The translations under genes and the position numbers were made by a program. The notes under the pieces are model-generated. The model was given only the letters and a program-made list of their open reading frames with translations, was not told the origin of the DNA and did not search any database. DNA of 43,525 nt. Source: a virus. Its lineage: Duplodnaviria > Caudoviricetes. The stretch spans positions 1 to 43,525 of the IMG/VR virus record IMGVR_UViG_3300032608_000646; one strand, given 5' to 3'. Shown in pieces: positions 4,440-39,958 of this stretch (position 1 is its first letter; each line of letters opens with the position of its first letter).

Positions 4440-4643
4440 ATGATTTATAGTCCCAGCCCTTATTATTATGTTGAAATTAGAAACAATATTGCTTTTGTTG
4501 TGGAAAAGAATACAGAAAGAACAATAGGTTATTGGAAGGATAAAAAATATTTTAGTTATGCGTTACATCCTGATATAACAGTCTCTATTGATGGAACACC
4601 TGTTAAAAAAGCTGATGGAATTGTTGCAGGAGGTCATAGATGA
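4440..4643 (+). CDS. hypothetical protein
   Basis: AAGGAG RBS; coupled to next gene. Confidence 0.5.
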   Translation: MIYSPSPYYYVEIRNNIAFVVEKNTERTIGYWKDKKYFSYALHPDITVSIDGTPVKKADGIVAGGHR

Positions 4644-5584: not shown

Positions 5585-5636
5585 TGGATAGCATAGTAGA
5601 AATCACTTCTATTTTAGCTAAATTATCTCTTATTGG

Positions 5637-6560: not shown

Positions 6561-7336
6561 TGGAGAACATTGTTTTTACAGATCTAGAGCAGGACTATAT
6601 CGATTTTTTTGGTGTATCACAGAAATATTTTATTGATAGAGTAAAGACACAAGGCGATTGGAATAATTTTAGAAGACGGTTTTTTCGCAACGCGAATACT
6701 GTCTCAAGAGAAGATCTATATAATTTATATAAACATGAGTATTATTCTAATAGATGCACGGCAGTTATAACTAAGACATGGTTCAGGGATCTTGAAAAGG
6801 AGAACAAAAATTTATTTGAGGCTGTTATCATTGGGAGAAAATTACATCCTTTTAATGCTGGAAAAAAAGCACTTGATTATGGGTGCCTGTGGGGTTTTTA
6901 TGGCACTCAATTGGCTACATGGGGATATGATGTTACATTAATGGATATACCGCATGGATTTTTTGAGTTTTTAGAATATCTGATAATAAAATATAAAGTG
7001 CCAAATATAAAATGTAAACCAATTACTGTGAATGAGGATAGCATTGAAGGTACGTATGATTATATTGTTTGTAGCGATGTATTAGAGCATTGCTATGATC
7101 CTGAACACGCTTTAAAACAATTGGTATCACATTTAAAAGATGATGGATATATGTTTTTAATGACTTGGTTTGATGACGGTAAAGGCGCCGATCCATCTCA
7201 TTTAAGAAGGAACACAGAAAAATATCAGGATTCGAAGTATGCTTTTGGATTATTTAATGAATGCGGATTAATTTCTACCACACCAGAGAAACCACATAAC
7301 GAACTACAGCATTTATTCAGAAAGAGGAGGATATGA
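6557..7336 (+). CDS. class I SAM-dependent methyltransferase
   Basis: ALDYGCLWG (motif I), YDYIVCSDVLEH, LKDDG. Confidence 0.9.
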   Translation: MMENIVFTDLEQDYIDFFGVSQKYFIDRVKTQGDWNNFRRRFFRNANTVSREDLYNLYKHEYYSNRCTAVITKTWFRDLEKENKNLFEAVIIGRKLHPFNAGKKALDYGCLWGFYGTQLATWGYDVTLMDIPHGFFEFLEYLIIKYKVPNIKCKPITVNEDSIEGTYDYIVCSDVLEHCYDPEHALKQLVSHLKDDGYMFLMTWFDDGKGADPSHLRRNTEKYQDSKYAFGLFNECGLISTTPEKPHNELQHLFRKRRI

Positions 7337-8340
7337 AAGTATTGTATTTAGTACATCCCGAGCAAGATTACGGAGAATATTATCTCTTTAATGGCCTATG
7401 TGAAATTCTCGGAGAGGAGAATGTAGTTACATATCCTTTTAAAAAGTCATACTATGGGTTGCCCCATGATGATTATATATTAGATGATGGTAAAAAAGGT
7501 TTTACCGCTCCAGGGGATAATATTGTAGGACGCAAGGTCAATAATTGGGATTTTATGGCTATCTGCGAACGGATAGAGGAGTTTGACTATATTATTCTTA
7601 CATCGGCGCGCACGTATGCGGTTAATGCTCTTGAGCAGCTCAAAGAGGTTTTTAATAAACTTTCAAAGCCATTGATATTTACAGAGCATGAGGATTCTAC
7701 TCATCTTAGAACAGACATTATAAAGCAATACGCTCCAGAGGTAGTTTTTAAAAGGGAACTCGTAAGAGGCATAGATTATACATATAAAGGTCAAAATATT
7801 TATTCCCTTCCATTTTCCTGTGCTATAAATAGCTTTCCAAGTTTTGATGATACTAAAAAAGAATATAGTGTCTTTGGTATATTTGGTAACACATGGCCAT
7901 TACGTAGAGATGTTGTTAAATTAGTTTTAAATATGAAAATGAAAAATTCTTATGTTGGTATGGATACAGGTAACTCAACAGATGGACATACGCTTTTAAA
8001 CTATAAAGACTTTCTTGAACACATAGCTCGATCAAAGATAGCCCTATCTGTCAGAGGCCATGGACGCGATACTTGTAGGCGCTGGGAGACAGCTGCTTAT
8101 GAAACATTAGTTATGATATGTGACCCAGGTATTATAATCCCTAATGATTTTGAAGATGGAAAGCATTGTGTATGGTTTAATAAAGACTTAAGTGATCTTG
8201 AAGAAAAGATATGTTATTATTTAGAGCATGATGATGAGCGTATTAAAATAGCTAAGGCAGGGAAAGAACATTTAATGAAGTATCACACTAATCAGGCGCG
8301 AGCAAAGTATTTTCTAGATATAGTGAAAGGAGAAACATGA
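7333..8340 (+). CDS. GT-B glycosyltransferase (CgeB/Glyco_trans_1_2-like)
   Basis: SKIALS, RRWETAA, FEDGKHCVWF, YYLEHDDERIKIAKAG...HT...RA C-terminal signature. Confidence 0.85.
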   Translation: MKVLYLVHPEQDYGEYYLFNGLCEILGEENVVTYPFKKSYYGLPHDDYILDDGKKGFTAPGDNIVGRKVNNWDFMAICERIEEFDYIILTSARTYAVNALEQLKEVFNKLSKPLIFTEHEDSTHLRTDIIKQYAPEVVFKRELVRGIDYTYKGQNIYSLPFSCAINSFPSFDDTKKEYSVFGIFGNTWPLRRDVVKLVLNMKMKNSYVGMDTGNSTDGHTLLNYKDFLEHIARSKIALSVRGHGRDTCRRWETAAYETLVMICDPGIIIPNDFEDGKHCVWFNKDLSDLEEKICYYLEHDDERIKIAKAGKEHLMKYHTNQARAKYFLDIVKGET

Positions 8341-9554
8341 TTATTGACGCATTGAAAGCTAAAATTAAAGACCATTTAGATATTAACAGTTTAAAAGATG
8401 ACAACACAATACTTGTTGTGACAGGCTATAGCGCTACTCAGTTTAGCTATTTTCAAGTAAAGGTTAAAGATTTTGATAATTTTGATTTTTCGAAAGTAGG
8501 GGAAGAATATTTAATGAAATATCATAAAAGTGAGATAGCGGACGCACTTCATTTTCCAATAAAAAATTCTGAAGTAAATGGTGTTGTCCTTTTTTTAGCA
8601 GTAAGCACTATTACTAATGGGCTGACAATAGTGATGCGAGAAGCTAGTCGAGTAGCAAGGGTTGGTGCGAGAATAGTTATTTGTGAAGAAGTAGCGCCTA
8701 GTGCACGCCTTCATTCAGAATTTACAATGCTTCATAATTTAACTACTAATAAATTATTATTTAATTATGACATGGTTCATTTTATGATGGTTGGGTTAGA
8801 TTCATTTAAATGGGAGCATTATGTTTTAACTAACCGTTCTATTGCTGAATATGCTGATTCTTCTGAAGAAGTTGGAAGATACTGCGACTTATTTTTAAAT
8901 AGATTAAGTGGAGCACTATTAAGGGGGATGCAGTTTAATGACAATAAAGGCAATTTATTTGTTAGCAGGAATATTCTTATAGCTTCGGCAAAATTTTTTA
9001 ATAGTGAAGGTTATCTTAACATGGGTTGGTGGGATGGTCCAGATAGATTTAGAAAAGTCAACAGAAATGTTATTTCTGCTATTCAGAGAGATGTTTTTTA
9101 TAAAATGGTTCTTTTTTTAGCGCCAGGAAAAGAAGGTTGGGATATGGGAGGCCCTGGATGTGAGGTAATGGGTGTAAGAGTTAAAGGCCTTAATATTGAA
9201 GGGGGTAGAGACTTAACAGCAGACGCGAGCAATACACCTTTTGAAGATAACTCTATTGATTTTATTATTAGCGCGCATGCTATTGAGCATATAAAAAATA
9301 CTCGAAAATTATTTCAGGAGTGGCAGAGGATCTTAAAGCCAGGAGGTATTATAGGATTTATTATGCCTAATGTACAATATTTTGTGCATAACCCAGCCGC
9401 AGGAACAGCTGATAAGGATTTAGCGCCTTCTGAGATGACTCCAGGCCAATGCCGTGAAATAATAGAGATGGAAGCTCCGAATTTAGAGATATTAATGTTT
9501 AATACTTTTCAAAATAATTTTGAGTTTGAGGGTTTGTTAAGGAAGAAATGTTAG
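8337..9554 (+). CDS. two-domain SAM methyltransferase (degenerate N-terminal + Methyltransf_11-like C-terminal domain)
   Basis: C-term DMGGPG, PFEDNSIDFIISAHAIEH, EWQRILKPGG; N-term ADALHFPIKNSEVNGV and EASRVARVGARIVI. Confidence 0.8.
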   Translation: MIIDALKAKIKDHLDINSLKDDNTILVVTGYSATQFSYFQVKVKDFDNFDFSKVGEEYLMKYHKSEIADALHFPIKNSEVNGVVLFLAVSTITNGLTIVMREASRVARVGARIVICEEVAPSARLHSEFTMLHNLTTNKLLFNYDMVHFMMVGLDSFKWEHYVLTNRSIAEYADSSEEVGRYCDLFLNRLSGALLRGMQFNDNKGNLFVSRNILIASAKFFNSEGYLNMGWWDGPDRFRKVNRNVISAIQRDVFYKMVLFLAPGKEGWDMGGPGCEVMGVRVKGLNIEGGRDLTADASNTPFEDNSIDFIISAHAIEHIKNTRKLFQEWQRILKPGGIIGFIMPNVQYFVHNPAAGTADKDLAPSEMTPGQCREIIEMEAPNLEILMFNTFQNNFEFEGLLRKKC

Positions 9555-17210: not shown

Positions 17211-18770
17211 ATGGCTTTAGCATTAAATGGAGCGGATCGGGAATATAATAAATTTCAACAAGATTATGTAACAGAACAGGGTACGATTGTTAAAGTAATA
17301 GAGCATGTCGATGCTTTAGCGCATGAAGGATATGTTTTTAGCGCCTCTCATGTATTTGCTAATGTTGCTAATGATGCTGCCGTAGATATGTTATTAGTTG
17401 TTAGTGGTAATAATAATGCTCATGTACATATCGATCTTGCTTGTGGCGGAGGCGCTGCGGTACAAGGAGATGTCTATGAGAGTCCGACTATTACAAATAA
17501 TGGTACATCAGTTACAGTTTATAATATGCAAAGGCGCAGTACTAATGTTGCGCAAACAGTTGCATACTATACACCGACTGTAGGTGCTACAGGATCTACA
17601 GATCTTGTGTCAAAAATAGCTGCTGATTGGCATTTAGTTCCATTGGGACATGGTGAATGGATTTTTGCTAGTGGGAGAATTTATTTAATACGTGCAACAA
17701 ATAGAAGTGGCGCTACTGCAGAAGTTTCATGCCAAATTAGTTGGAGTGAGCGTGCACAAACTTCTTCAAGTTCTAGTTCTTCTAGCTCTAGTTCATCAAG
17801 TTCTAGTTTATCTAGCTCTAGTTCATCAAGTTCAAGTTCTTCAAGCTCTAGTTCATCAAGCTCTAGCTCTTCAAGTTCGAGTTCTTCAAGTTCTAGCTTA
17901 TCAAGTTCTAGTTCTTCATCTAGTTCAAGTTCTAGTTCTTCAAGCTCTAGTTCTTCAAGCTCTAGCTCTTCAAGTTTGAGCTCTAGCTCAAGTTCTAGTT
18001 CTTCAAGTTCTAGTTCATCAAGTTCTAGTTCTTCAAGTTCTAGCTTATCAAGCTCTAGTTCTTCAAGCTCTAGTTCTTCAAGCTCAAGTTCAAGCTCTAG
18101 TTCAAGTTCTAGTTCGCTTACTCAGGAATGGTTTGGGGTTACTAGTGCTAATCTTGATTCAGACTGTGGAGATGATGGTGATAGCACAACTGTTGAAAAT
18201 GCACTTGATGGTACGAATGTGTGGAAACATTCAGTTAATGAGACGCATTGGATGATAATAGATCTTGGTTTAAGTCGTTGGGTAAGTAGCGTTCGTGGTA
18301 GAAGTGGAGGCGATTTAAGTTGGGATCCAACCGTTGTTAATATTTTTGTAAGTGACTCTAAGGTAGATTGGGGGGGTGCTGTAAAGACGGGTATCACTAC
18401 ATGGCAGGATACTACTGTTTGGCAAGAAATTGCACTTACTGCTCAAAAATTTGGTCGTTATGTAAAAGTAGAAATAACTACTACTGAGGACGCGCTAAAC
18501 AATTACTTAGAATTTGGCGGTCCAGCTACTGGATATTTCCCAATTTTTGATGTATATGTGCAAGGAAGTATGTCAAGTTCTAGTTCTAGCAGTTCTAGTT
18601 CTAGTTTAAGCTCTAGCTCTAGCTCTAGTTCTAGTAGCTCAAGTTCTAGTAGCTCAAGTTCAAGTTCTAGTTCAAGTTCTAGCTCTAGCTCTAGTAGTTT
18701 AAGTTCATCAAGTTCTAGCTCTAGTTCAAGTTCTAGTTCAAGTTCTAGTTCAAGTACTAGCGCAGGTTAA
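17211..18770 (+). CDS. poly-serine protein: beta-rich N-domain, poly-Ser, discoidin/F5-8C-like domain, poly-Ser
   Basis: GGAGGTGA RBS; NALDG..W....HWMIIDLG...GRYVKVEI discoidin pattern at 18117-18566. Confidence 0.75.
   Translation: MALALNGADREYNKFQQDYVTEQGTIVKVIEHVDALAHEGYVFSASHVFANVANDAAVDMLLVVSGNNNAHVHIDLACGGGAAVQGDVYESPTITNNGTSVTVYNMQRRSTNVAQTVAYYTPTVGATGSTDLVSKIAADWHLVPLGHGEWIFASGRIYLIRATNRSGATAEVSCQISWSERAQTSSSSSSSSSSSSSSSLSSSSSSSSSSSSSSSSSSSSSSSSSSSSSLSSSSSSSSSSSSSSSSSSSSSSSSSLSSSSSSSSSSSSSSSSSSSSSSLSSSSSSSSSSSSSSSSSSSSSSSLTQEWFGVTSANLDSDCGDDGDSTTVENALDGTNVWKHSVNETHWMIIDLGLSRWVSSVRGRSGGDLSWDPTVVNIFVSDSKVDWGGAVKTGITTWQDTTVWQEIALTAQKFGRYVKVEITTTEDALNNYLEFGGPATGYFPIFDVYVQGSMSSSSSSSSSSSLSSSSSSSSSSSSSSSSSSSSSSSSSSSSSSLSSSSSSSSSSSSSSSSSSTSAG
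17763..18116 (+). repeat. poly-serine coding tract (118 codons)
   Basis: Mixed TCT/TCA/AGT/AGC codons with occasional Leu. Confidence 0.95.
18567..18761 (+). repeat. poly-serine coding tract (~65 codons)
   Basis: Mixed Ser codons with occasional Leu. Confidence 0.95.
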
Positions 18771-22431: not shown

Positions 22432-24669
22432 ATGGATAAGCAAAAACTGCTTATAGTATCAGATACTCCAACTCTAAGGACTGGACTTGGAAGAATTACC
22501 CGGGAAATAACATCAAGATGCACACAGTTTTATGATGTGGCAGTAGGCGGGTGGCATCATTTACCGCTATTAAGGCACTCTTATGATTATTATATATACC
22601 CGTTAGATAAAGTGCCCCGTGATCAAGGCAATCAGTTAGCGGCAGTGCTGCAAGACTTCAACCCAGACATTCTCTTAGCTATTGGAGATATCTGGGATTT
22701 TTTTTATGCTGAGTCAATTATTACGCAGTATAGAGATCAAGTTAAACCTTTAAAGGCATTTTTGTGGCTTACTGTTGATGGTGAATATTTAAATCCTGGT
22801 TGGGGTGACATATTGCGTACATTTGATGGGGTAGCTACTTTTTCACATTCAGGGTTGGAAGAAATAAAGAAGTATAAAATAAAGAATAATTATTCTGTTA
22901 TATATCCAGGCTTGGATAAGAATACATTTTTTCCATATCCTAAAGATTTTAAGTGGAAAAAAGAAAGCGTAATTGAAGTTGAAAAGACTTTTATGTGTTT
23001 AGTGGTTGGCCAGAATTCAGAGAGGAAGAACATGCCAGCTACTTTAGAAGCTTTTGCTGAATTTCAAAGAGATAAGTCAGATGTATTACTTTTTATGGTT
23101 ACAGACCCAAGAGAACCTTTTGGGCATGATCTTTGGACAATAGTTAAGAAATTAGAGATAGGATCAAAAGTTATGGTAGCTAAAAATGCGCATCCACGAA
23201 GCGGGATACCTGAGATTAAATTGAACCTCCTCTACAATATGGCAACTTGTATCGTTAATACCGCAGTGGGCGAAGGATGTGGACTACCTTTACTAGAAGC
23301 ACAGGCTGTTAATTGTGTGCCTATGTGTGTTAATTATGCTAGTTCCCCTGAAATAGTGCAAGACAGGGGAAGAGTTTTTGATATTGGTGCAATGATATAT
23401 GGTGAGTATGGAGTTAAACGCGCTATTGTATCGCAAAAAAGTGTTGTTAGTAATCTAAATGACTTATATAAATCCTGGAAGGGTGATAGAAGTTTAATCA
23501 AAGAATATAATAAAAAAGGAATTGCCTTTGCCAGTAATTTTAGCTGGGAAAAAACAGTAGAAGAACTTCATACATTTATGGAGGCTCCTAGTATTTCAGA
23601 TAATACTAGAGGTTGGGTCAAAGAAAAGATTAAATTGGAACATTTAAAATTAATGATGGTTGTTCCATCATGGGGCAAGAATTGCGGGATAGCGGAATAT
23701 TCAAAAGAACTTATGGCTGCTATTGAGTTTAATAAGAAAGAGACTATGGTATTTCCGAGTAATGACCCTACGGCAATTGTGGCAGCGGCTAAAGAAAATA
23801 AGTGTAATTGTGTATGCCTTCAGCATGAGTTTGTCTTTTTTCAAGATAGATTCGCGTTAGAGCAGCTTTTGATTACCTTGAAAAAAGAAAACATTAAATC
23901 AGTAGTTGAGTTGCATACCTATTCACCATTAGCAAATTACAATCAGATGGTATTAGAACACGCTGATGAAGTTATAGTTCATTGTGATAAATTTAAAGAA
24001 TCTATGACTAAAGGAAAAGAGGTAGAACACCTTCGCATACTGCCAATGGGTTGTAAACCTCCTGTTAGTTTTGACTTGGTAGAAATTAAAAAGGAACTTA
24101 AATTAGAAAACAAGTTTCCTATAGTTGGGTCATTTGGGTTTATGAGGGATCAAAAAGGCTATCATGATATTGCGAAAGCAATAAGAGAGTTAAGGGATAT
24201 TTATAAAGATATCTTCTTTCTTTTGGTAGCGCCTCGGCATGAATTTGGAAGCTCGGCCTATGAGGAAACTTTTTATAGATTTATTGAGGATTTGCAATTA
24301 CAAGATAGGGCTTTAATAATAAGAGAATATATGCCTGAAGAAAAGTTATTGAAAACATTAGCTTGCGCTGACATGTTTATTCTAAATTATAAGCCTTCTC
24401 CTGCTGGGGGAGGCAATTCAGCGGCTGTTAAAACTTTAATGCGTGCTCAACGTCCTATAGCAGTTTCAGATACATTATATTTTGCTGATTTGCCAGGCAC
24501 TGTAGTTTGTAAATTAAAAACTACTACTGTGGATAGCTTAAAAGGCGTTATTAAAGAATTAGTTGATAATAAGAAGAAAAGCGCTGAATATGTAAAGAAC
24601 GCTAATAAATATTTAAATAATAATTTATGGAATAATGTAGCGGCAAAACATATTGCTATTTATTCTTAA
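22432..24669 (+). CDS. tandem double GT-B (GT4-like) glycosyltransferase
   Basis: Module 1: SDTPTLRTGLG, VGQNSERKN, GEGCGLPLLEAQA, FSWE. Module 2: PSWGKNCGIAEYS, FGFMRDQKG, ADMFILNY, W.NVAAKH...Y. Confidence 0.9.
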   Translation: MDKQKLLIVSDTPTLRTGLGRITREITSRCTQFYDVAVGGWHHLPLLRHSYDYYIYPLDKVPRDQGNQLAAVLQDFNPDILLAIGDIWDFFYAESIITQYRDQVKPLKAFLWLTVDGEYLNPGWGDILRTFDGVATFSHSGLEEIKKYKIKNNYSVIYPGLDKNTFFPYPKDFKWKKESVIEVEKTFMCLVVGQNSERKNMPATLEAFAEFQRDKSDVLLFMVTDPREPFGHDLWTIVKKLEIGSKVMVAKNAHPRSGIPEIKLNLLYNMATCIVNTAVGEGCGLPLLEAQAVNCVPMCVNYASSPEIVQDRGRVFDIGAMIYGEYGVKRAIVSQKSVVSNLNDLYKSWKGDRSLIKEYNKKGIAFASNFSWEKTVEELHTFMEAPSISDNTRGWVKEKIKLEHLKLMMVVPSWGKNCGIAEYSKELMAAIEFNKKETMVFPSNDPTAIVAAAKENKCNCVCLQHEFVFFQDRFALEQLLITLKKENIKSVVELHTYSPLANYNQMVLEHADEVIVHCDKFKESMTKGKEVEHLRILPMGCKPPVSFDLVEIKKELKLENKFPIVGSFGFMRDQKGYHDIAKAIRELRDIYKDIFFLLVAPRHEFGSSAYEETFYRFIEDLQLQDRALIIREYMPEEKLLKTLACADMFILNYKPSPAGGGNSAAVKTLMRAQRPIAVSDTLYFADLPGTVVCKLKTTTVDSLKGVIKELVDNKKKSAEYVKNANKYLNNNLWNNVAAKHIAIYS

Positions 24670-24681
24670 AGGAGCATAGAA

Positions 24682-26763
24682 ATGAAGATTTTAATTACAG
24701 GCGCAAGCGGATTTATGGGGTCACATATAGCTGAAGCTTTTGTAAAATTAGATGAGCATAAAGTATATGGTGTAGATGATAATTCTGGAGGGAATCCTCA
24801 AAATGTACCAATAGGCTGCTTATTTACAGAATTAGATCTACGAGACAAAGAGAAGGTAGCTGCTTATATCAAGCAAGTACAGCCTGATGTATTATATCAT
24901 TTAGCCGCTAATGCGCGAGAATGTGCCTCTTTCTTTCAGCCAATAGATGTTACTGAAAGAAATTTATTAGCTTACATTAATGTATTAGAACCTTGTATTA
25001 AATATGGTATGAAAAAAGTTGTTCTTTTTTCTTGTCATGATAATAAAACCAGACTTGTTACTAAAAAAGGATTAAAATATTATTGGGAAATTAATAAAGA
25101 TGACATTGTTTTTTCTTTAAATAAAAAATGTGAAATTGAAGAATCTCAAATTAATGAAATTATTATTAATGAATATAAGGGTAAGTTAATTAATTTTAAA
25201 GGTAAAGCTAATTTAATGGTTACCCCTAATCATAGAATGTGTTATATAAAATCTCCCAAGTTAAATCCTAGATTAGAATACGAGATCGCTGAAAAAAGTT
25301 TTAAACGCTCTTATTTACAATGTCCACAAGGGAAATGGATAGGTAAGGAGGTGGCTATAAATTATGCTATAAATAAGAAGGATTTAGCTTATTTAGTAGG
25401 TTTATTTATAGCAGACGGTGTTGCGTCTTATGAAATAAGAAGACAGAAAAATAAAAGCGGATACAATAGAAAAGATTTTTTAAAAAAACGTGATACATTA
25501 GGTAGATTTTATAAAATTAAAAAAAGAGGCATAAATAATTTTTCTTATTGGGATATTTATTCTATTAGATTTTGTATTCCAGAAAGTGATAGATCAAGAA
25601 AAAAATTGATTGATATATTAGAAAGAAATAATTTGAATCCATGGTCGGATAGAAATGTTGTTGGTATTAGTTCTAAAAATTTAAAAGAATTATATAATAT
25701 TTTTTCTGAATGTGGTAAAAATGCACACGAAAAAAAAATTCCAACCAAGTGGCTTAATGGCGATAAAGAGCTACTAAAAAAAGTTTATGAAGGTTTAATG
25801 GATGGAGATGGTGATAAACGTAGAATGGTCTTAACTACAGTTTCGATGAAGTTGGTTGAAAACTGTATAGAATTGGCAATTAAAATAGGTAAAACTATTA
25901 GCTTTAAATACCATAAACGAGAGAAAGAATGTAAATTAAAAGATGGTAGGATTATTAAAGGTTCTGGTGCATATTATATTTGTTTTGGGAATAAAAATCA
26001 AGTAATTTGGAAAAAAAAGTATAATTTTAAAAAATTTCCATATAAAGGAAATGTATGGTGTTTAAATACTAATAATTCTAATTTTTTAGTAGAAAGAAGA
26101 GGACGTATTGCATTTTCAGGTAATTCAATGTCCAGGTACGGTGATCAAGAACCTCCATTTGATGAGGAATATCCAACAAAACCATTGGATATATATGCTT
26201 CTAATAAAGTAGCTATGGAAGAAATTACTAAACAATTGTCGGGAGCGCATGGTTTTGAATGGACAATTATTGTGCCAAGAAATGTATTTGGAGAAAAACA
26301 GTCTCTTAAAGATCGTTTTAGAAACTATATTGCTATAACCATGAATCATATTATGCGTAATGAAGATGTGATAATTTATGGTGATGGTGAACAAGTGAGA
26401 TCATTTTCATATATTAAAAATAGTTTACCATGTTATATAGACTGTTTAGATGATTGTGAGGGAGAGACTATTAATATAGGGGGTTTAGCCCCTAAGACTA
26501 TTAATGAAGTAGCAGAGCTTATTATTGTTCAGTTTTCAGGTTACAAAGGAAAAGTTGTGCATTTGCCGCCACGGCATGGAGAAGTTAAACTAGCTTATGC
26601 GACGTATAAAAAGTCACGTTTTAAACTTGGTTATAGAGAAAAATATAGTTTAGAAGATGGTATCGCTTTAATGGCTGCATGGGCAAAGAATCAAGGCCCG
26701 CAAGAATGGACAAAGGATACTCTATCATTAATTAATGAAAAAGTGCCTATGACTTGGAGGTGA
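24682..26763 (+). CDS. NAD-dependent NDP-sugar epimerase/dehydratase (extended SDR) containing an intein
   Basis: GASGFMG, YHLAA, spliced junction VLFS/SMSRYG, YASNK, PRNVFG, YGDGEQVRSFSYI; 329 aa after splicing. Confidence 0.92.
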   Translation: MKILITGASGFMGSHIAEAFVKLDEHKVYGVDDNSGGNPQNVPIGCLFTELDLRDKEKVAAYIKQVQPDVLYHLAANARECASFFQPIDVTERNLLAYINVLEPCIKYGMKKVVLFSCHDNKTRLVTKKGLKYYWEINKDDIVFSLNKKCEIEESQINEIIINEYKGKLINFKGKANLMVTPNHRMCYIKSPKLNPRLEYEIAEKSFKRSYLQCPQGKWIGKEVAINYAINKKDLAYLVGLFIADGVASYEIRRQKNKSGYNRKDFLKKRDTLGRFYKIKKRGINNFSYWDIYSIRFCIPESDRSRKKLIDILERNNLNPWSDRNVVGISSKNLKELYNIFSECGKNAHEKKIPTKWLNGDKELLKKVYEGLMDGDGDKRRMVLTTVSMKLVENCIELAIKIGKTISFKYHKREKECKLKDGRIIKGSGAYYICFGNKNQVIWKKKYNFKKFPYKGNVWCLNTNNSNFLVERRGRIAFSGNSMSRYGDQEPPFDEEYPTKPLDIYASNKVAMEEITKQLSGAHGFEWTIIVPRNVFGEKQSLKDRFRNYIAITMNHIMRNEDVIIYGDGEQVRSFSYIKNSLPCYIDCLDDCEGETINIGGLAPKTINEVAELIIVQFSGYKGKVVHLPPRHGEVKLAYATYKKSRFKLGYREKYSLEDGIALMAAWAKNQGPQEWTKDTLSLINEKVPMTWR
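25033..26124 (+). mobile_element. intein with LAGLIDADG homing endonuclease (364 aa)
   Basis: Begins CHDNKTRLVT; block B VTPNHRM; GLFIADG and GLMDGDG; ends VWCL...NFLVERRGRIAFSGN followed by Ser+1. Confidence 0.92.
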
Positions 26764-31227: not shown

Positions 31228-31505
31228 ATAGACTTCCTTACTATAATGATCTTGAACTCGCGGACTTACCAGCTGATTTTTTAAGTGTTATTCAATATAG
31301 AATATATTTAGACTATGTGGACGAGGTATTAGGGTATTATTCAAGCATACCTCAGCCATCTGGCTATATAATACATGAGCCCAGGGAATTTAATAAATGG
31401 GCAGAATGGGCACAACAGTATAAACCGAAACAAGATATGAGTATTATGCCATTAGGCATAGGAGAAACCGCAAGAACTTTTAATGAAATGATGGAGAAAA
31501 TATAA
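31200..31505 (+). CDS. gpT-like frameshift extension of tail chaperone
   Basis: -1 frame GVWRVGIKVNRLPYY... is continuous with track ORF 31317-31505; its stop overlaps the TMP ATG. Confidence 0.75.
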   Translation, partial: GVWRVGIKVNRLPYYNDLELADLPADFLSVIQYRIYLDYVDEVLGYYSSIPQPSGYIIHEPREFNKWAEWAQQYKPKQDMSIMPLGIGETARTFNEMMEKI

Positions 31506-34177
31506 TGGCTGCAGGTAAACAAGTTGATGTATTGGTTAATATAGGTGTAAATTTTGTTCAATCCGACCAAGCGATGAAAAAAGTACAGCAAGGTGCTCAA
31601 GCAGCACTTATTCCTATAAACAAAATAACTAAGGATACTGCTAGTTATCAAAAGAAAAGTATGATGACCATGATGCGTTGGGGCATGATGTGGTCATTGA
31701 TATATGGTCAAATCCGCCTTGTTATGAGTGCCATAACAGGAGTTATTTCCGAGATGGGCCAGCTTGATGATACCATGGGAAGAGTAATGACGGTTACTAG
31801 AACAGGTGGAAAAGACGTTACAATGGTAATGACAGAAATGAGAGATGCTGTTTTAAAGTTTGCTGCTACTTCGCGTCAAAGCATTACTGATGTAGCTAAA
31901 ACATTATATTTTCTTGGTTCAGCCGGTTTAGATATGGAGCAACAGTTGGTTGGCATGCAGCATGTTATTGATTTAACAACTGGAACTGTAGGGCAGTTAG
32001 ATCAAGCGGCTAAATTAGTCGCTGGTTCATTTAATGTTTTTGGGGATTCACTAGAAGGTGTTACAACTGATGCTGAAAAATTTAAGCAAATTGCTGATAC
32101 ATTAGCGTTTGTATATTCAGAACAGCAGGTAGAGCTAGATGAAATTGCTAACGCTTTTAAATTAGTAGGGTCTGCCGCAGGTTTAATGGATATTAATTAT
32201 CAAGATTTAGTTGCAACTCTAGGTTTCCTTAATACCGGGATGCTCAAAGGAACAAGAGCAGGAACTTCCTTAATGAACGCGTTTGTTAAAATTGCTCAAA
32301 ATGCAGATAAACTACGTACTAAATTTGGGATAGCCTTAGATCCGACAGAGCCACTTAATTATGTAAGAGTTATGACCTTATTACATGAAAAAGTACAGGA
32401 TAATGTCACAGAAGCCCAGACACTAAAACAATTAAATGAAGTTTTTGGATTACGTGGCGCTCGAATGGTAAATAACGTATTAAGTAGATGGGATGAATAT
32501 GGAATTTCCCTAGATAATGCAAGAAATAAATCAAAAGATTTTGCCTCGCTGATGGCTAAGCAGATGAATGAGACGTTGCCTGGGGCCATTACTGTGTTTA
32601 GCAATAAATTAAAATCGGGTGTTATTGATGGGTTAACTGCTATAACTGACACGCTTCGCGAAACTATAGTTGAAGTTAATCAATTTATAGAAGAAAATGA
32701 CACATTAATTGAACAAGTAAAACGTATTGCCAAAGAACGTGGAATAGAATTACGAACAGCTGAAGAAATTGAAAAAGCTTATAAGTCCCAAATAAAACCA
32801 TTAGATACTGTAGCTGGTTATTTTGAAAAAACAAAGGAATCAGGTATTTTAATTTTTAGTGCTCTTAAAAGTATTCTTGGTGTTACATCGCAAGTAGCTG
32901 AAGAAAGTAAAAAAAATGAGACATCGTTATTTAAAGCAACGAAGCATGCCGCTTTTGCATTAGCAAATGAAAAAGAACGCGTTAAGGCAGCAGCTATGCT
33001 TGGTATTTCAGTTGAAGAATTAAATGGATGGTTAAAAGAAGAGGAAGCAACGCAGAAGGCGATAACAGGAGAAATAAATAAGCAACTTGATGGAACGAAA
33101 GAGATTCTTGAACTTAATACGGAACAACAGCGTGCTCTTACTAAAATGCGCGGAGCTACTTTAGCAGCACAAAAAGGAGAATTTGGGGCTAGCGCAGAAG
33201 TAATAGCTACTCAGAAATTATTAAACTTTGAAAAAGAAATAGCAGGTCTTTCAGAAACTGAGGTTGAACGTGAAGCTGTATTGGCGGAATTTGCCAGGAT
33301 GCGTAATGCCTCTATAGAAGAAATTTATAACAATACTTTATTACGAACTCAGCTTGGTTCAGAATTAATGAGCTATGAAAAACTTCGCCTTGAAGTTTTA
33401 AAAGCATCTAATGAGGAGTTAGTAAAAACAGCTAAAATTCTTAAGACAGGTGTTCATGGAATGATAATGGACATCGTAGATGGCACATTAGATTGGCAAA
33501 AAGCTATTGCTGATGTAGGAAGAAAAATGGTTTCAATGGCAGCTGAGCAGTTTGTTCAAAAATGGTTCATAGAGCCTATATTTGACACAGCTGTATCGAC
33601 TTTTGAAAATGCGGAGTATGCTTTTAAAACTGATGTAGATATGTTTAATACAGCAGTAAATAGCTTTGGAACCTATCTTAATACATTTAATCAAGAATCA
33701 GTATTTGGTGGAAAAGGGCAGGCTTCTGATTTTTATTCTCCATTAGCTGATAGTGTCAAAAAGGGTACCCAAAAAGGTGTAGAAGAAGCTGCTAAAAAGC
33801 AATCTAAATATAAAAAGATTGGTGATGTAGGACTTGGTGGTTGGGTTGGTATGGGTGCGGCAGCTTATGGTGCTTATCAAGGAGGGTCTCCAGTAGGAGG
33901 CGCGATGTCAGGCGCTATGATGGGAGCGGCGTTTGGGCCACCAGGAATGATTATAGGTGCGGCTGCAGGGGCTATTTTAGGTGCATTAGGCTCTAAGGAT
34001 AAAAAGGACCAAGTCTCCGAACAAACTAAACAGATTACAAGTAAAATTAACATAACAAACAGACTATTAGAAGTTACCAATAGAAATCTTTCAGCATTAA
34101 AGGAAGAAATTCGCCCGTATCCGCTTCCCGAAAGTTACTATTTTTCGAGTGAGGCTGCGAGAGGATGGGTAAGATGA
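31505..34177 (+). CDS. tape measure protein (TP901-type core)
   Basis: DVAKTLYFLGSAG, GMLKGTRAGTSL, EVFGLRG motifs; C-terminal glycine-zipper hydrophobic segment. Confidence 0.92.
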   Translation: MAAGKQVDVLVNIGVNFVQSDQAMKKVQQGAQAALIPINKITKDTASYQKKSMMTMMRWGMMWSLIYGQIRLVMSAITGVISEMGQLDDTMGRVMTVTRTGGKDVTMVMTEMRDAVLKFAATSRQSITDVAKTLYFLGSAGLDMEQQLVGMQHVIDLTTGTVGQLDQAAKLVAGSFNVFGDSLEGVTTDAEKFKQIADTLAFVYSEQQVELDEIANAFKLVGSAAGLMDINYQDLVATLGFLNTGMLKGTRAGTSLMNAFVKIAQNADKLRTKFGIALDPTEPLNYVRVMTLLHEKVQDNVTEAQTLKQLNEVFGLRGARMVNNVLSRWDEYGISLDNARNKSKDFASLMAKQMNETLPGAITVFSNKLKSGVIDGLTAITDTLRETIVEVNQFIEENDTLIEQVKRIAKERGIELRTAEEIEKAYKSQIKPLDTVAGYFEKTKESGILIFSALKSILGVTSQVAEESKKNETSLFKATKHAAFALANEKERVKAAAMLGISVEELNGWLKEEEATQKAITGEINKQLDGTKEILELNTEQQRALTKMRGATLAAQKGEFGASAEVIATQKLLNFEKEIAGLSETEVEREAVLAEFARMRNASIEEIYNNTLLRTQLGSELMSYEKLRLEVLKASNEELVKTAKILKTGVHGMIMDIVDGTLDWQKAIADVGRKMVSMAAEQFVQKWFIEPIFDTAVSTFENAEYAFKTDVDMFNTAVNSFGTYLNTFNQESVFGGKGQASDFYSPLADSVKKGTQKGVEEAAKKQSKYKKIGDVGLGGWVGMGAAAYGAYQGGSPVGGAMSGAMMGAAFGPPGMIIGAAAGAILGALGSKDKKDQVSEQTKQITSKINITNRLLEVTNRNLSALKEEIRPYPLPESYYFSSEAARGWVR

Positions 34178-34611
34178 CTTGGGCAGTAGATTTACATACA
34201 GGGGCAAATACATGGATTTCGCAGGTTAAATTTCCAGATCCAGATTCTGCTGAACTCGGAGAGGATGTTATATCTACTTCTGAAGTACAGCGTTCGATTG
34301 ATGGTTCTCAAGTAGTGACTCAGCCGGAAAGAACATATAATCTTGAGCCGATAATGCTTAATTGGTCTTTGAGATATAGAGCAACTGGTTCCGGTATAAC
34401 TTTTAATACAGTATCCTTAAAAGAAAGAGTGGAGAACTATATAAAGTCAGGTTCTGGATTAAAACTAACTACGCATACTGGTAAGGATTTTGTTGGACAA
34501 TTTACTCGTATGAGTAATAGGTGGAGATTATCAGGTTCCACACAAAAATATGATGTATCTGCGGAGTTCCAGCAACTTGATGTTGAGATGTTAAGGGATC
34601 AGCAATGGTAA
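34165..34611 (+). CDS. distal tail protein (putative)
   Basis: Small beta-rich protein directly after TMP, RSIDGS motif; start may be ATG 34174. Confidence 0.55.
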   Translation: MGKMTWAVDLHTGANTWISQVKFPDPDSAELGEDVISTSEVQRSIDGSQVVTQPERTYNLEPIMLNWSLRYRATGSGITFNTVSLKERVENYIKSGSGLKLTTHTGKDFVGQFTRMSNRWRLSGSTQKYDVSAEFQQLDVEMLRDQQW

Positions 34612-34639
34612 TTTCGCAAGATATGTATAAGGGCCAAAC

Positions 34640-37600
34640 ATGGCAAATCAGACATATAATGCTGCGACACATACATATGGAGATACTAATCTTGAATATG
34701 ATGGTCTTTTAGAATCATCAAGTTCCTCATCATCTAGTTCCTCATCATCTAGTTCGTCATCATCATCAAGTTCGTCGTCATCATTATCCAGTTCATCTAG
34801 TTCTAGTTCAAGCTTTAGTTCGTCATCGTCAAGTTATTCTAGTTCATGTTCATCATCAAGTTCGTCATCATCATTATCCAGTTCTAGTTCTTCATCATCC
34901 AGTTCATCTAGTTCATCATCAAGTTCGTCATCATCATTGTCCAGTTCTTCAAGTTCTAGTTCCAGCTCATCTAGTTCTAGTTCATCATCATCATTTTCTA
35001 GTTCATCATCATCAAGTTCTAGCTCTAGTTCATCATCTTCATTGTCAAGCTCGTCATCGTCTAGTTCATCTAGTTCTAGCTCTAGTTCATCATCTTCATT
35101 GTCAAGTTCGTCAAGTTCATCAAGTTTGAGTTCCAGCTCATCATCTTCATTATCCAGCTCATCATCATCCAGTTCATCTAGTTCATCATCCAGCTCATCA
35201 TCATCCAGTTCATCTAGTTCATCATCAAGTTCGTCATCATCATTGTCTAGTTCTTCAAGCTCTAGTTCTTCTTCTAGTTCATCTAGTTCTTCAAGCTCTA
35301 GTTCTTCAAGTTCATCATTAGCGCCCGGGTGGATTGGGGTTAATAGCAGTATGCTTAATTCATCTTGTGGAGATGATGGAGGTGACACAACTGTTGAAAA
35401 TGCCCTTGATGGGACTAATGTTTGGAAACATACTGTAGATGAAGTTCATTTTGTAATTATAGATTTAGGAATCAGTCGCTATATCACACAAGTAAGGGGT
35501 AGAAGTGGAGGGGATTTAAGCAGAGATCCAACAAGTGTTTCTATTTGGGTTAGTGATGTTATAGGAGCTTGGGGTGATACGGTTAAAACAGGTATTACTA
35601 CATGGCAAGATACTATTGTATGGCAAGAAGTTGAACTTACTACTCCTAAAAATGGGCGCTATGTAAGAGTTTTAATTGAGGATACTGAATCACCGGATGA
35701 TTATTTAGAGTTTGGTGGTTTTACGGGAACTTTTTTTCCTATTTTTGATATATATGTTGCTGGAAGTTCATCAAGTTCAAGCTCATCATCATCAAGCTCA
35801 TCATCATCTATAAGTTCCAGTTCATCCAGTTCCAGTTCATCATCATCTAGTTCTCTTTCTAGTTCGTCGAGTTCGTCAAGCTCAAGTTCATCAAGCTATA
35901 GTTCATCAAGCTCTAGTTCATCAAGTTCTAGTTCTTTGAGTTCCAGCTCATCTAGCTCTAGTTCATTATCATCAAGCTCAAGTTCGAGTTCGTCATCATC
36001 AAGCTCAAGTTCATCATTATCCAGTTCATCTAGTTCAAGTTCAAGTTCATCATCATCAAGTTCATCTAGCTCAAGTTCATCATCATCTAGTTCATCTTTG
36101 TCAAGTTCATCAAGTTCATCATCATCTAGTTCTTCATCATCTAGTTCATCATCTTCGAGTTCGTTGAGTTCTAGTTCAAGTTCTAGTAGTTCTACTGATA
36201 CAACATGGATTTATAATGATACAAGAGGCACATATGGAGATGTTAATCTCGAATATGATGGGGGATTAGAATCTTCTAGTAGCTCGTTATCCTCTAGTTC
36301 TAGTTCTTCAAGCTTAAGTAGTTCATCTAGTTCTAGTTCATCTAGTTCTAGTTCATCTAGTTCATTGAGTTCTAGTTCTTCCAGCTCATCATCAAGTTCA
36401 TCTAGCTCTAGTTCATCTAGCTCTAGTTCATCAAGTTCTAGTTCTTCAAGTTCTAGTTTATCAAGTTCTAGTTCGTCTAGTTCCAGTTCATCGAGTTCTT
36501 TAAGTTCAAGTTCAAGTTCATCAAGTTCAAGTTCTAGTTCTTCAAGTTCCTTAAGTTCAAGTTCATCAAGTTCGAGTTCATCAAGTTCGAGTTCAAGTTC
36601 AAGTTCATTATCATCTGAAAGTTCTTCTAGTTCTAGTTCAAGTTCCAGTTCATTATCAAGTTCTAGTTCGAGTTCAAGTTCATCAAGTTCTAGTTCATCA
36701 AGTTCTAGTTCAAGTTCATTATCATCTAGCTCCAGTTCAAGCTCGTCATCATCTTTATCCAGTTCATCATCATCAAGCTCATCCAGTTCCAGTTCTAGTT
36801 CAAGTTCATCATCATCAAGCTCATCTAGTTCGAGTTCTAGTTCGTCATCATCAAGCTCATCTAGTTCGAGTTCTAGTTCGTCATCATCATTCTCTAGTTC
36901 AAGTTCATCATCATCATTATCTAGTTCGTCTAGTTCAAGCTCATCATTATCCAGTTCATCTAGTTCAAGTCTTTCTACATCTCGGTTTACTCCTGATGCT
37001 ATAGATGCTTTAGGTAAAAGAAATATACAGAAATACATTGAGGTATTCATAAATGATGAAAGGATATCAAGTAATAGAGTTTTATCATATGGATATTCTC
37101 AAAATAAAGATTTTGCGGCAGATCAACTTTCTCTTGTGTTAGATAATAGGGATGGTGCCTATTCGCCATCAAATAAGGATTGGTATAATGTTGAAGTGAA
37201 GTTTTTTGAGGGAATATTCGCAGGCGGCAGGCTCTCTAAGCAACAGAAATTCAGGGGAATCATAAGACAAATTGAAACAGCGCATAATGCTGGCGTGAAT
37301 GTAACTAACATAACAGCTTTTGATTATGTAGTAAGGTTACAGGAATTGGAGATAGAACAACTTTATGAGGCACAAAAAGTAAAAGTTAATCTTGAGACCC
37401 CTTCAGTTAATTTTATTTCGTTTAGTGCTTCTATAAATGGGTCACCTTCTACAACAAGCGTGGTTTATGATGGAGAAGCAAACGAAAGCGATCTTACTGC
37501 AGGGGATACTTTATATAATGTTACGGACAGTTATTCGACACGAACTGTTGTCTCTGTAAATACAGGTACAAAAACTATTACTACTACCGCGAAATCTGAT

Positions 37601-39958
37601 AGTTGGGCAAATAATGACACCATTGTTGATTCTACAAGGGTACAGGTATTAGATTTAGCAAATTCTAACATAGCTGATTTTCCTATACCTACTATAAAAA
37701 TACAAAATAGGGATGACTTATTAGAGGATCCTTTATGGGAAGGATTTGAAATGATGTATCAAAATGGACAAATCCTTCTTGGAAAGCCTATCAATTGGGC
37801 TGAATATCTTATAAGGTGTAGTTATTACTATTACCCTACATCTTCTTCAATGTATGTAGAAGACATTATACAGGATATTATTACTACAGTAGATGGTTAT
37901 GGTAACATACCATTTACAACAGGTACCAACCTATCAAGAAATTTTAGCAATATGGCGAATAAGACTATTGATACTTTAAAACCTAACTCAGATACTGAAA
38001 TCATTGATGGTACATCATACGCTGCTGGGCGTATTTGGTATTTAACTTACAATAATGTATGGAGTTTAAATCAGAATAGCTTTACAGTACAGGGAGGCAC
38101 TATTTCAAGCGTAGATAATAGATATGGCCGCATTTTCTTGGATGCGGCTATAGGAACTTCAAGTATAGTTACCTATGGTCAGGATTATACTTTTTGTACC
38201 TTACAGGCTACAGGGATTCAATTCACTAAAGTTGATCTTACATATGAACAGATCAATAATAGATTAGAAGCTGTTAATAAGTTAAGAGATTTAGTGGCGC
38301 CGAATTATGTCTTCCAGACTCGTGGCTCCAGAAGCATATGGGGAAGATACTTATATCAAAAAAATACAGCTGATTATCAAGCGAAAAATCTGCTTAATTT
38401 AAGCAAAGCTGAGGACATAGAAGTATATACAAGGGTAAGATTGTTTGGGCGTAATAATAATCCAGAAAATCTTATGATGAATCCTAATACTGAAATAGAG
38501 CAGGATACATCTGATTATTATGGGTCTCCTATTAATAGAGAATTAACATTTTCTGCTGAAGATAGCGGGTGGCGTGAGTACACTACAGGTTTGGGTGAGA
38601 ATGCTAAAATAGTACCCACTTATGAGGGGATTAATTCTTGGCCAATTGTTTATATTAATAATATACCAATAGATAATGAATCACATGAAATGCTGCTGCA
38701 ACAAGCGGCAATTAAAAGGCGCGAGACATACAAACAGGAATGTCATTCTTGGTGCCAGAAGTATAAACAAAGAAGTTATAGGCAGTATTGGATTTACTTT
38801 TCACATTCTGATATAGACCCTGCCAGCCCAATTACTTTATATGATGCTAATGGCACTGTATTAAAAACTCTTATTAGATATCATACAGAAGTTAATTATG
38901 GAGCAGGTTATTGGTATAGAAATGTTGGAGAAGGGACCGCTTCATGGGTAGAAAATGTTTCTACTGCGTCATATTTTGTTAAGTATTCTCAAGGGAAATT
39001 ACAAATTTTGTGGGATGAAGGTAAATTTAGACTGCATAACTCTCTTTTTAGTACGCAAAGACAAGATTTAGTAACAGCTTCTTTTACATATTCAGCAATT
39101 TATCAAGCCCCTGGTGGCTCAGATTTATTAATAGATGGGCGTCCAAGCACGCAGGTGCAGACCACTTTTAATGCAAAACCGTCTTCTGGGTTCACATGGG
39201 CTATTGTTGATTTTGGTTCAGTAAAAGAGATGGACGCCATAGATATTGTAGGAGGCTTCTATTATCCAGATTTAGATTCTCCCGCGAGAAAATTTAATAC
39301 AGTAGGATGGTTTACCATGGAGTACTCACCTGATGATGAAGATAGTTCTACTGATGCTACGTTTTATCCTTTATGCCCAGAAGCTATTAATTTTAAATTA
39401 GAGGGGGGAGAAAGTAAATCTTTTGAGAGGGACGATTTAGGGCAATCGTTTGAAGCCAGATATCTAAAGATTAAAATAGAAGATTTAGAACTGATACCTT
39501 ATGGGAGTGAACCGCTATATGTCGTAGCCTTTTCTGAGCTTGCCGCATATAATAATGTAGTATTTTCTACTGAAGCTCTTCTTGTGACTGATCCACTTGA
39601 TGATGATTCTAATCATCTTTATGATGCGGATGGTTTATTAGCTAAGCTAGGCGATAAAGTTTATAAAGAAACTACTATTAATGATACTTTAACATCTGAG
39701 GTATATCTTAAAAGAAAAGCAAAAGGATTATTAAGGGAGTTTACAAAAAATCATACTAAACTTACAGCACGTTGTGCTTATGGCCCACACTATGAAGTAG
39801 GGCAAACTTTACAGATAGTTGATAATAAAAATAGTATTAACGCTAATTATTTTGTAGAAGCGGTTAATAATAACAATGGCAGTATCAATTTAAGCCTTGC
39901 TAAATATCCACAATATACAGCTTTAGGTGGGCAAGACCCAGGAGTCGCAAACCAATGA
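34640..39958 (+). CDS. giant tail-tip/hub protein with N-terminal poly-Ser and discoidin-like modules
   Basis: From ~36983 hub-like motifs (DQLSLVLDNRDGAYSP, FRGII, TAFDY; C-terminal GPHYEVGQTLQI); discoidin-like domains at 35318-35764 and ~39120-39550. Confidence 0.75.
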   Translation: MANQTYNAATHTYGDTNLEYDGLLESSSSSSSSSSSSSSSSSSSSSSSLSSSSSSSSSFSSSSSSYSSSCSSSSSSSSLSSSSSSSSSSSSSSSSSSSSLSSSSSSSSSSSSSSSSSSFSSSSSSSSSSSSSSSLSSSSSSSSSSSSSSSSSSLSSSSSSSSLSSSSSSSLSSSSSSSSSSSSSSSSSSSSSSSSSSSSSSLSSSSSSSSSSSSSSSSSSSSSSSSLAPGWIGVNSSMLNSSCGDDGGDTTVENALDGTNVWKHTVDEVHFVIIDLGISRYITQVRGRSGGDLSRDPTSVSIWVSDVIGAWGDTVKTGITTWQDTIVWQEVELTTPKNGRYVRVLIEDTESPDDYLEFGGFTGTFFPIFDIYVAGSSSSSSSSSSSSSSSISSSSSSSSSSSSSSLSSSSSSSSSSSSSYSSSSSSSSSSSSLSSSSSSSSSLSSSSSSSSSSSSSSSSLSSSSSSSSSSSSSSSSSSSSSSSSSSLSSSSSSSSSSSSSSSSSSSSSLSSSSSSSSSTDTTWIYNDTRGTYGDVNLEYDGGLESSSSSLSSSSSSSSLSSSSSSSSSSSSSSSSLSSSSSSSSSSSSSSSSSSSSSSSSSSSSSSLSSSSSSSSSSSSSLSSSSSSSSSSSSSSSSLSSSSSSSSSSSSSSSSSSLSSESSSSSSSSSSSLSSSSSSSSSSSSSSSSSSSSSLSSSSSSSSSSSLSSSSSSSSSSSSSSSSSSSSSSSSSSSSSSSSSSSSSSSSSSSSFSSSSSSSSLSSSSSSSSSLSSSSSSSLSTSRFTPDAIDALGKRNIQKYIEVFINDERISSNRVLSYGYSQNKDFAADQLSLVLDNRDGAYSPSNKDWYNVEVKFFEGIFAGGRLSKQQKFRGIIRQIETAHNAGVNVTNITAFDYVVRLQELEIEQLYEAQKVKVNLETPSVNFISFSASINGSPSTTSVVYDGEANESDLTAGDTLYNVTDSYSTRTVVSVNTGTKTITTTAKSDSWANNDTIVDSTRVQVLDLANSNIADFPIPTIKIQNRDDLLEDPLWEGFEMMYQNGQILLGKPINWAEYLIRCSYYYYPTSSSMYVEDIIQDIITTVDGYGNIPFTTGTNLSRNFSNMANKTIDTLKPNSDTEIIDGTSYAAGRIWYLTYNNVWSLNQNSFTVQGGTISSVDNRYGRIFLDAAIGTSSIVTYGQDYTFCTLQATGIQFTKVDLTYEQINNRLEAVNKLRDLVAPNYVFQTRGSRSIWGRYLYQKNTADYQAKNLLNLSKAEDIEVYTRVRLFGRNNNPENLMMNPNTEIEQDTSDYYGSPINRELTFSAEDSGWREYTTGLGENAKIVPTYEGINSWPIVYINNIPIDNESHEMLLQQAAIKRRETYKQECHSWCQKYKQRSYRQYWIYFSHSDIDPASPITLYDANGTVLKTLIRYHTEVNYGAGYWYRNVGEGTASWVENVSTASYFVKYSQGKLQILWDEGKFRLHNSLFSTQRQDLVTASFTYSAIYQAPGGSDLLIDGRPSTQVQTTFNAKPSSGFTWAIVDFGSVKEMDAIDIVGGFYYPDLDSPARKFNTVGWFTMEYSPDDEDSSTDATFYPLCPEAINFKLEGGESKSFERDDLGQSFEARYLKIKIEDLELIPYGSEPLYVVAFSELAAYNNVVFSTEALLVTDPLDDDSNHLYDADGLLAKLGDKVYKETTINDTLTSEVYLKRKAKGLLREFTKNHTKLTARCAYGPHYEVGQTLQIVDNKNSINANYFVEAVNNNNGSINLSLAKYPQYTALGGQDPGVANQ
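34715..35317 (+). repeat. poly-serine coding tract (201 codons)
   Basis: All six Ser codons used; sparse L/F/Y/C. Confidence 0.95.
35765..36193 (+). repeat. poly-serine coding tract (143 codons)
   Basis: Mixed Ser codons; sparse L/I/Y. Confidence 0.95.
36272..36976 (+). repeat. poly-serine coding tract (~235 codons)
   Basis: Mixed Ser codons; sparse L/F/E. Confidence 0.95.

Follow-up and report, generated by a model that had tools for sequence, protein, structure and literature searches.

The stretch of DNA analysed here (hereafter the window) comprises 43,525 nucleotides, about 43.5 kb, and its CheckV completeness of 25% marks it as a genome fragment of a tailed phage, which was detected in freshwater and viral metagenomes. 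Genes for the prohead protease, the major capsid protein and the tape measure protein were identified through family matches, and putative terminase, portal and tail-tube genes were read from position and conservation. No prophage relative was found in two GTDB scans, no GenBank phage matched the hub, the F5/8 domain or the gene at 39955 described below, and a search of IMG/VR for sequence continuing the contig gave nothing. The features considered in this work are the following:

4640-5584, plus strand: GT2 glycosyltransferase, in a cassette at 4640..9554
5637-6560, plus strand: GT2-fold protein, same cassette
6557-7336, plus strand: methyltransferase, same cassette
7333-8340, plus strand: PF13524 glycosyltransferase-like protein, same cassette
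8337-9554, plus strand: methyltransferase, same cassette
17211..18770, plus strand: second poly-Ser gene, directly upstream of the prohead protease, with a phrog_5335 domain, a Ser tract (118 aa, 17763-18116), an F5/8 domain and another Ser tract (63 aa, 18573-18761)
22432-24669, plus strand: double GT4, in a block at 22432..26763, two genes after the major capsid gene
24682-26763, plus strand: nucleotide-sugar epimerase with an intein, same block, after the double GT4
31505..34177, plus strand: tail tape measure protein, from family matches
34165..34611, plus strand: 148-aa gene after the tape measure and before the hub, called distal-tail-like solely from its position, with no family match
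34613..36982, plus strand: insertion of ~2.37 kb relative to the related locus L014, with its own spacer and an ATG at 34640
34640..39958, plus strand: 1772-aa ORF, whose first 781 residues form a serine-rich arm that runs in frame into a predicted baseplate hub of 991 aa
34640..34714, plus strand: N-terminal Tyr-Asp-Gly motif (aa 1-25), like the one opening a 973-aa poly-Ser protein of phage G038
34715..35317, plus strand: poly-Ser tract 1 (aa 26-226, 201 aa, 189 Ser)
35318..35764, plus strand: F5/8 type C (discoidin/CBM32-like) domain, PF00754 match
35765..36193, plus strand: poly-Ser tract 2 (aa 376-518, 143 aa, 135 Ser)
36194..36271, plus strand: 26-aa spacer with a second Tyr-Asp-Gly motif
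36272..36982, plus strand: poly-Ser tract 3 (aa 545-781, 237 aa, 221 Ser)
36983..39958, plus strand: region predicted as a baseplate hub (Tal-like), which contains a CBM32/F5/8-like domain and shares 60-62% identity with stand-alone homologues of 990-992 aa
39955..40830, plus strand: 291-aa gene overlapping the hub stop, with no homologue in 432 loci

An earlier note on this DNA had described a tail hub protein at 34640..39958 preceded by poly-serine tracts of 201, 143 and about 235 codons. Frame and coordinates were confirmed, and the recomputed tracts measure 201, 143 and 237 codons, all in frame, with Ser at 545 of their 581 residues (93-94%). The lectin-like domain that had been placed at the tail tip was also recovered, since a profile search detected a PF00754 F5/8 domain (E 3.6e-10) between tracts 1 and 2; the match supports the F5/8 fold, and “lectin” should be read as a label for that fold. 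The two F5/8 domains score 40.5 and 35.7 bits against a Pfam gathering cut-off of 28.2. The domain of the hub ORF is 66% identical to its paralogue at 18123-18566 and shares 62-64% identity with copies that are flanked by poly-Ser in an unrelated group of phages.

The region downstream of the arm, a predicted member of the gp27/Tal/VgrG-like baseplate hubs, follows the tape measure gene and the 148-aa gene, an order that is the same in the related loci L014 and L020. It gave a weak phrog_52 match in a profile search, no PDB sequence match, and a model of low confidence (pLDDT 58, pTM 0.28), for which Foldseek returned 10 hits at E<=1e-3, all of them tail, baseplate or injection-system structures, with a TM by query of ~0.1 and partial matches to HFTV1, GTA, E217, JBD30 and T5 structures. 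The predicted hub identity, already proposed by the earlier note, is thus supported by position, by the weak phrog_52 match and by the Foldseek matches of a low-confidence model. Six homologues of 990-992 aa (61-62% identity) have their Met start exactly at the point where tract 3 ends. At this ancestral start the window has no ATG, GTG or TTG, the first being GTG 37136, 51 residues inside conserved sequence, so arm and hub are probably translated as one chain. Translation from a point after the tracts, which the earlier note had named as fatal to its reading, is indeed what public gene calls assume, as they begin the protein at GTG 37136, 832 residues in, but such a start would delete those 51 conserved residues. 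An ATA at 37049 is preceded by a Shine-Dalgarno-like word, and starts at either 37049 or 37136 would remove a helix and a strand at the N-terminus that close homologues share.

The tracts are also present in other assemblies. Logan contigs from eight runs of two studies tile the tracts of the hub ORF with no listed indel, where one of the eight runs is possibly the window's own source and some listed overlaps are shorter than 31 nt. Their pieces bridge the upstream gene to tract 1, tract 1 through the F5/8 domain to tract 2, and tract 3 to the hub, and the passage from tract 2 to tract 3 is bridged by pieces of two runs. The suspicion of an assembly artefact, also raised by the earlier note, is in this way countered piece by piece, but no single contig piece spans the whole tract region, the breaks coincide with internal repeats, and the exact tract length is not proven. 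At position 35898, four of four runs read C, which makes a Ser codon of Tyr420 in tract 2 and reflects either strain variation or a mistake in the window. These samples also contain numerous further Ser/Thr-rich repeat contigs that do not resemble this phage, indicating that tracts of this type are common in the community.

Hub loci were retrieved with an alignment query, a single-sequence hub query having given no viral locus. In all 62 fetched loci that include the hub N-terminus (50 of them distinct), a stop codon lies at most 15 codons upstream and there is no arm. In L014, a 60%-identical relative, nearly the same upstream gene-end DNA is directly followed by the hub ATG, whereas ~2.37 kb lie between the two in the window. 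Judged by the L014 junction and the 62 arm-less loci, the arm entered between the upstream stop codon and the hub as a lineage-specific insertion. Among 168 proteins of the hub search, a Ser-rich window occurs only in P0018, which is an F5/8 match, and 3 of 100 proteins with an aligned N-terminus have extensions of at least 190 aa, with 10-14% Ser. The search found no hub homologue of 1736-4955 aa, which is weak evidence. Three hub homologues (P0008, P0012 and P0011) carry intein-like insertions inside the hub.

The insert has a mosaic structure built from two modules, one with poly-Ser after a Tyr-Asp-Gly motif and the other with an F5/8 domain between two poly-Ser tracts. The first module occurs twice in the arm and also opens a stand-alone 973-aa protein of G038 (L415:14782-17700), which is nearly all Ser with a Phe every ~13-15 residues. 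The second is also found in the head-region gene 17211-18770 of the window and, at 61-64% identity, on P0018 as well as on capsid-adjacent genes in L205, L163 and L160. Both modules recur in an unrelated group of 64-kb phages. In all close copies except one the F5/8 domain is flanked by tracts, and the G038 orthologue of the capsid-adjacent gene has a serine tail without the F5/8 domain. Within the hub family, Ser-rich tracts are found on other neck or tail genes (L020, L028, L038, L045, L051, G002 and G011). From this recurrence on different structural genes we infer that recombination through near-identical serine-codon DNA moves the modules between them. In the G038 phage, a DUF2460 gene and a tail-tube-like gene also bear Ser tails. 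A neck-region gene of L020 (L020:1-1779) has a 544-aa Ser tract with a Thr every ~13 residues and another of L028 (L028:2-1549) has Ser-Pro-Ser-Glu repeats.

The codons of the tracts point to selection for serine at the protein level in the sense frame. All six Ser codons are used, and the five tracts of both poly-Ser genes together have 719 Ser codons, of which 262 are AGY; no AGR codon occurs. The 43 residues other than Ser are L33, F3, Y2, T2, C1, I1 and E1, and neither Pro, Gly, Ala, Asn, Arg nor a stop occurs in any of the five tracts, though many of these are one transition away. It is the mixture of TCN and AGY codons, together with the missing AGR codons and the missing residues, that argues for a constraint on serine, and the open antisense frames rich in Asp, Glu and Leu would follow as a by-product. 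Codon-neighbour counts over the five tracts give Leu 31/279, Phe 3/178 and Asn 0/262, and with the latter two values so low, C-to-T mutation bias alone does not account for Leu. No heptad periodicity of Leu or of the spacing of non-Ser residues was found in the tracts. The mixed codons, the unbroken frame and the mostly Leu interruptions with almost no Thr, Ala or Gly (here T2 and no Ala or Gly) had already been noticed in the earlier note.

That note had also seen no fixed DNA repeat unit, and none is fixed, but the DNA is not random: TRF detects degenerate arrays in it (periods 6-90, 62-88% match), and exact internal repeats reach 50 nt in tract 1 and 45 nt in tract 3, above the maxima of 26 and 23 nt in codon shuffles (10 shuffles per tract), whereas that of tract 2 (23 nt) does not exceed its shuffles. 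AGY-AGY codon pairs number 7 in the five tracts against ~91 expected, a 13-fold deficit. Selection and slippage both act on the tracts: this deficit and the exact duplications of 45-50 nt show slippage, by which the tracts would grow through the copying of short blocks; the earlier reading of selection on serine stands, and its opposition to slippage was too strong. The depletion of AGY-AGY pairs in most surveyed poly-Ser loci was not counted, as the search pattern itself required alternation.

The window encodes its own glycosyltransferases (GT2, GT2-fold, PF13524 and double GT4), plus an epimerase and two methyltransferases. The GT2, PF13524, double-GT4, methyltransferase and epimerase genes are common to four relatives (G001, G002, G005 and G008, the last a cassette-bearing relative with terminal repeats), and three of the four are without poly-Ser. 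Given these three relatives, the GT2/GT4 cassette of the window is, on gene content, not dedicated to the poly-Ser tracts and serves other acceptors too; poly-Ser occurs in 2/5 records with the cassette and 0/5 without it (p 0.44). The double GT4 was considered as a dedicated priming enzyme like GtfA/GtfB and rejected, being kept in three relatives without poly-Ser and matching chlorovirus B736L and BshA instead of GtfA. The intein in the epimerase gene (24682-26763) gives a weak PF14890 match and coincides with a low-GC stretch at 25-26 kb, relatives' epimerases having ~330 aa.

A broader association emerges across genomes. A single serine-codon pattern matches ~270 IMG/VR stretches, and from 126 pattern loci we selected, with apparent duplicates removed by eye, 49 that had a tract of at least 70 aa; they belong to 47 records (1.87 Mb), some of them related (G036, G038 and G053 are one phage). 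As controls we took the first 50 of 120 loci of an arbitrary 15-mer, 48 of which were searched (1.56 Mb). Any GT2, GT4 or GT9 was found in 21/47 poly-Ser records against 5/48 controls, which were unmatched for habitat and virus type (p 2e-4). By family, the counts are 8 against 2 for GT2, 7 against 1 for GT4 and, at a looser threshold (E 1e-3), 11 against 2 for GT9, whereas a PF13578 methyltransferase occurs in 18/47 against 2/48. The 26 of 47 poly-Ser records with no GT match include none that is 90% complete. Among the records at least 90% complete, 9/9 with poly-Ser have a GT (eight by Pfam, the ninth by our own GT9 profile), against 0/4 controls. Six of these nine lack GT2 and GT4, and the four of the six that were scanned each have a methyltransferase cluster near the poly-Ser gene and each encode a member of one phage GT9 family. 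The earlier suggestion that modification is plausible thus gains support from co-occurrence across genomes only.

The profile of this GT9 family, which has four invariant cysteines, matches TibC (E 7e-4, weak) and WaaF, and its gene adjoins poly-Ser genes in relatives. TibC heptosylates Ser and not Thr, according to an excerpt of PMC4358343. In the hub family, strong GT9 matches occur in G002 and G011, both with poly-Ser, and in L050, which ends inside the cassette. Records of this family without a strong GT9 have poly-Ser in 0/8 cases (p 0.022, post hoc), a value that becomes ~0.055, calculated by hand, when the window is counted as GT9-negative; the poly-Ser of G011 was located once its GT9 had prompted the fetching of the end of this record. 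Neither PF01075 nor our own profile detected a GT9 in the 43.5-kb window, the record being 25% complete, and the stretches fetched for five hub-family loci that have Ser-rich genes showed no GT9 either. In G038 and G057 (L415 and L426), the modification clusters close to poly-Ser genes contain LicD-family genes, and that of G038 also a CTP-transferase-like gene, suggesting possible phospho-decorations besides sugars.

We regard it as somewhat probable on balance that the 781-residue serine-rich module inserted in frame at the start of the predicted hub forms long arms displayed on the virion, whose serines are O-glycosylated by phage enzymes. The arm-hub chain would be made whole and would stay on the particle. 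Solved baseplate hubs are trimers, and a trimeric hub here would hold three copies of the arm. A priming transferase, most likely a TibC-like phage GT9 encoded in the unsequenced part of the genome, would load the serines, and the GT2/GT4 enzymes and methyltransferases would then extend and cap the glycans. The arms thus stiffened, up to ~200 nm long by arithmetic if fully extended, would shield the particle and carry their F5/8 domains outward for binding. Purified polyserine-42 self-assembles, as reported in an excerpt of PMC12926022, so masking of the arm serines could be useful. Over evolution, near-identical serine-codon DNA would allow recombination of the modules onto different structural genes, and block duplication would lengthen them. 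We hold more tentatively a wider version, in which phages trade poly-Ser cassettes across structural proteins to build a densely O-modified, mucin-like coat with lectin-fold beads, placed here on the hub (arms to ~200 nm) and coupled to an ABBA-fold enzyme that possibly prenylates it.

The strongest competitor, which we consider unlikely, is that the tracts carry no modification and act as spacers, or as stalks that associate with one another by the bundling of three arms on a trimeric hub, and so hold the F5/8 domain off the tail in the manner of the polyserine linkers (PSLs) of Saccharophagus and Teredinibacter. Such linkers join carbohydrate-binding modules to other domains (PMC2699552, in excerpt), the F5/8 domain is tract-flanked in nearly all close copies, the self-assembly of polyserine (PMC12926022, likewise in excerpt) would favour stalks, and the window is without a GT9. 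Known PSLs, however, average 39-44 residues against the 143-237 seen here, many phage tracts lie at a protein terminus, where they connect nothing, the spacing of non-Ser residues shows no heptad pattern, and the enrichment in glycosyltransferases would be left unexplained. We give little credence to a near-neutral expansion, where tolerated low-complexity DNA grew by slippage and spread by recombination, the serine itself being without function. It would account for the exact 45-50-nt duplications, the strong codon-pair bias and the patchy occurrence among relatives, but hardly for a frame held over 2.3 kb in an essential gene, for the use of both codon boxes with 0 AGR and a narrow set of interrupting residues, or for ~270 IMG/VR stretches with one pattern and an association with glycosyltransferases. 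Barely credible is an assembly artefact, or a by-product of the Asp/Glu/Leu-rich minus-strand ORFs at 34834-35388 and 36211-37050: both ORFs are open and no contig crosses the whole region, but poly-Ser necessarily leaves an antisense frame of Asp/Glu/Leu open, the AGY-only rule is a constraint on the sense strand's frame, and eight runs gave matching pieces with no listed indels.

Other alternatives concern the fate of the arm. That the fused chain is made and the arm then cleaved or shed, to act on its own as a serine protein, free or attached separately, and not as a tether at the tail tip, or that the hub is restarted internally, seems to us improbable. A like Tyr-Asp-Gly and poly-Ser protein stands alone in G038, all related hub loci are without an arm, and the ATA at 37049 has its Shine-Dalgarno-like word; no cleavage motif was identified, though, and a restart at 37049 or 37136 would drop the conserved helix and strand. 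Similarly improbable, in our opinion, is a prenylated arm, where the product of 39955-40830 would act on Ser, or on Tyr of the Tyr-Asp-Gly motifs, to give a lipid-like tail arm. Like the arm, this gene is without a homologue in the 432 loci, and it overlaps the stop codon of the hub. Searched with VIA, its single-sequence model (pLDDT 43.5) gave ABBA prenyltransferases as the top four and most of the top 24 matches, PagF, PatF and DciF among them, and cyanobactin F enzymes are known for Ser/Thr/Tyr O-prenylation. The best match (Z 7.0, rmsd 5.0 over 140 residues) nevertheless lies within the tool's stated background, there is no Pfam, NCBIfam or PDB-sequence match and nothing from Foldseek at E<=1e-3, nothing ties the gene to a substrate, and other poly-Ser phages lack it, so prenylation cannot be a general explanation. 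An ABBA-fold prenyltransferase at this position is therefore a possible lead only. At the same place, L020, L045, L051 and G011 have an unrelated gene of ~160 aa.

Among known systems, the closest in kind to glycosylated arms is, by analogy, the virion glycosylation of mycobacteriophages, where glycans have been reported on the major capsid proteins of Che8 and Rita (Freeman et al. 2023, via an excerpt of PMC11256854). The same excerpt of PMC11256854 describes a tailed phage with its own glycosyltransferases and a proposed glycan shield on structural proteins, as we propose here, but our proposed acceptors are dedicated serine tracts of 60-240 residues on the tail hub and a head-region protein. 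Fap1 serine-rich repeat proteins share a very long Ser stalk, a binding domain on it and clustered glycosyltransferases; they are secreted cell-wall adhesins (PMC5796085, in excerpt), whereas a near-homopolymeric Ser is fused here to a virion hub. No SecA2, SecY2 or Asp genes, nor GtfA/GtfB with DUF1975, were found among the 30 window proteins scanned. With the serine O-heptosyltransferases of the BAHT family (TibC/AAH; PDB 4RAP, 4RB4; PMC4358343, in excerpt) the likeness lies in the phage GT9 that matches TibC and sits beside poly-Ser in relatives, and the differences in that no such GT9 was found in the window, that the similarity is weak (E 7e-4), and that the acceptor here is not an autotransporter. 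The PSLs of Saccharophagus degradans and Teredinibacter turnerae, with at least ~80% Ser between folded domains that include carbohydrate-binding modules, belong to secreted enzymes and average 39-44 aa (PMC2699552, in excerpt), in contrast to the 143-237 aa with 93-94% Ser of this virion protein, and no catalytic carbohydrase domain was found in the arm-hub protein. As for the gp27/Tal/VgrG hubs, position after the tape measure and partial Foldseek matches of a low-confidence model speak for the likeness, and the serine-rich N-terminal arm is present here and in none of the related hub loci. The longest low-complexity region in 102 phage proteomes has 115 aa (PMC6821194, in excerpt). Phage-directed full-text literature, in a coverage that leaves out most subscription journals, yielded no paper on poly-serine virion arms.

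The contribution of this locus lies in a cleanly inserted arm on an essential hub, built from modules that are common to head and tail and to different phage groups, and in the partial dissociation of poly-Ser from the GT2/GT4 cassette. If the glycosylated-arm reading is true, widespread environmental phages would build glycosylated mucin-like appendages, and virion glycosylation would reach beyond the decoration of capsids to scaffolds made for the purpose. The tracts would also offer an assay substrate for a large uncharacterised family of phage GT9 enzymes and reveal a route for domain shuffling among virion proteins. Should prenyl groups be added by the coupled ABBA-fold enzyme, this would be a lipid-like virion modification that is undescribed. 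Arms of this kind can be hidden by gene callers, as happened here with the public call. Elsewhere in the window (20126-20897), cement-like genes are duplicated in tandem (77% DNA match, period 394), with one copy in the L083-L086 relatives.
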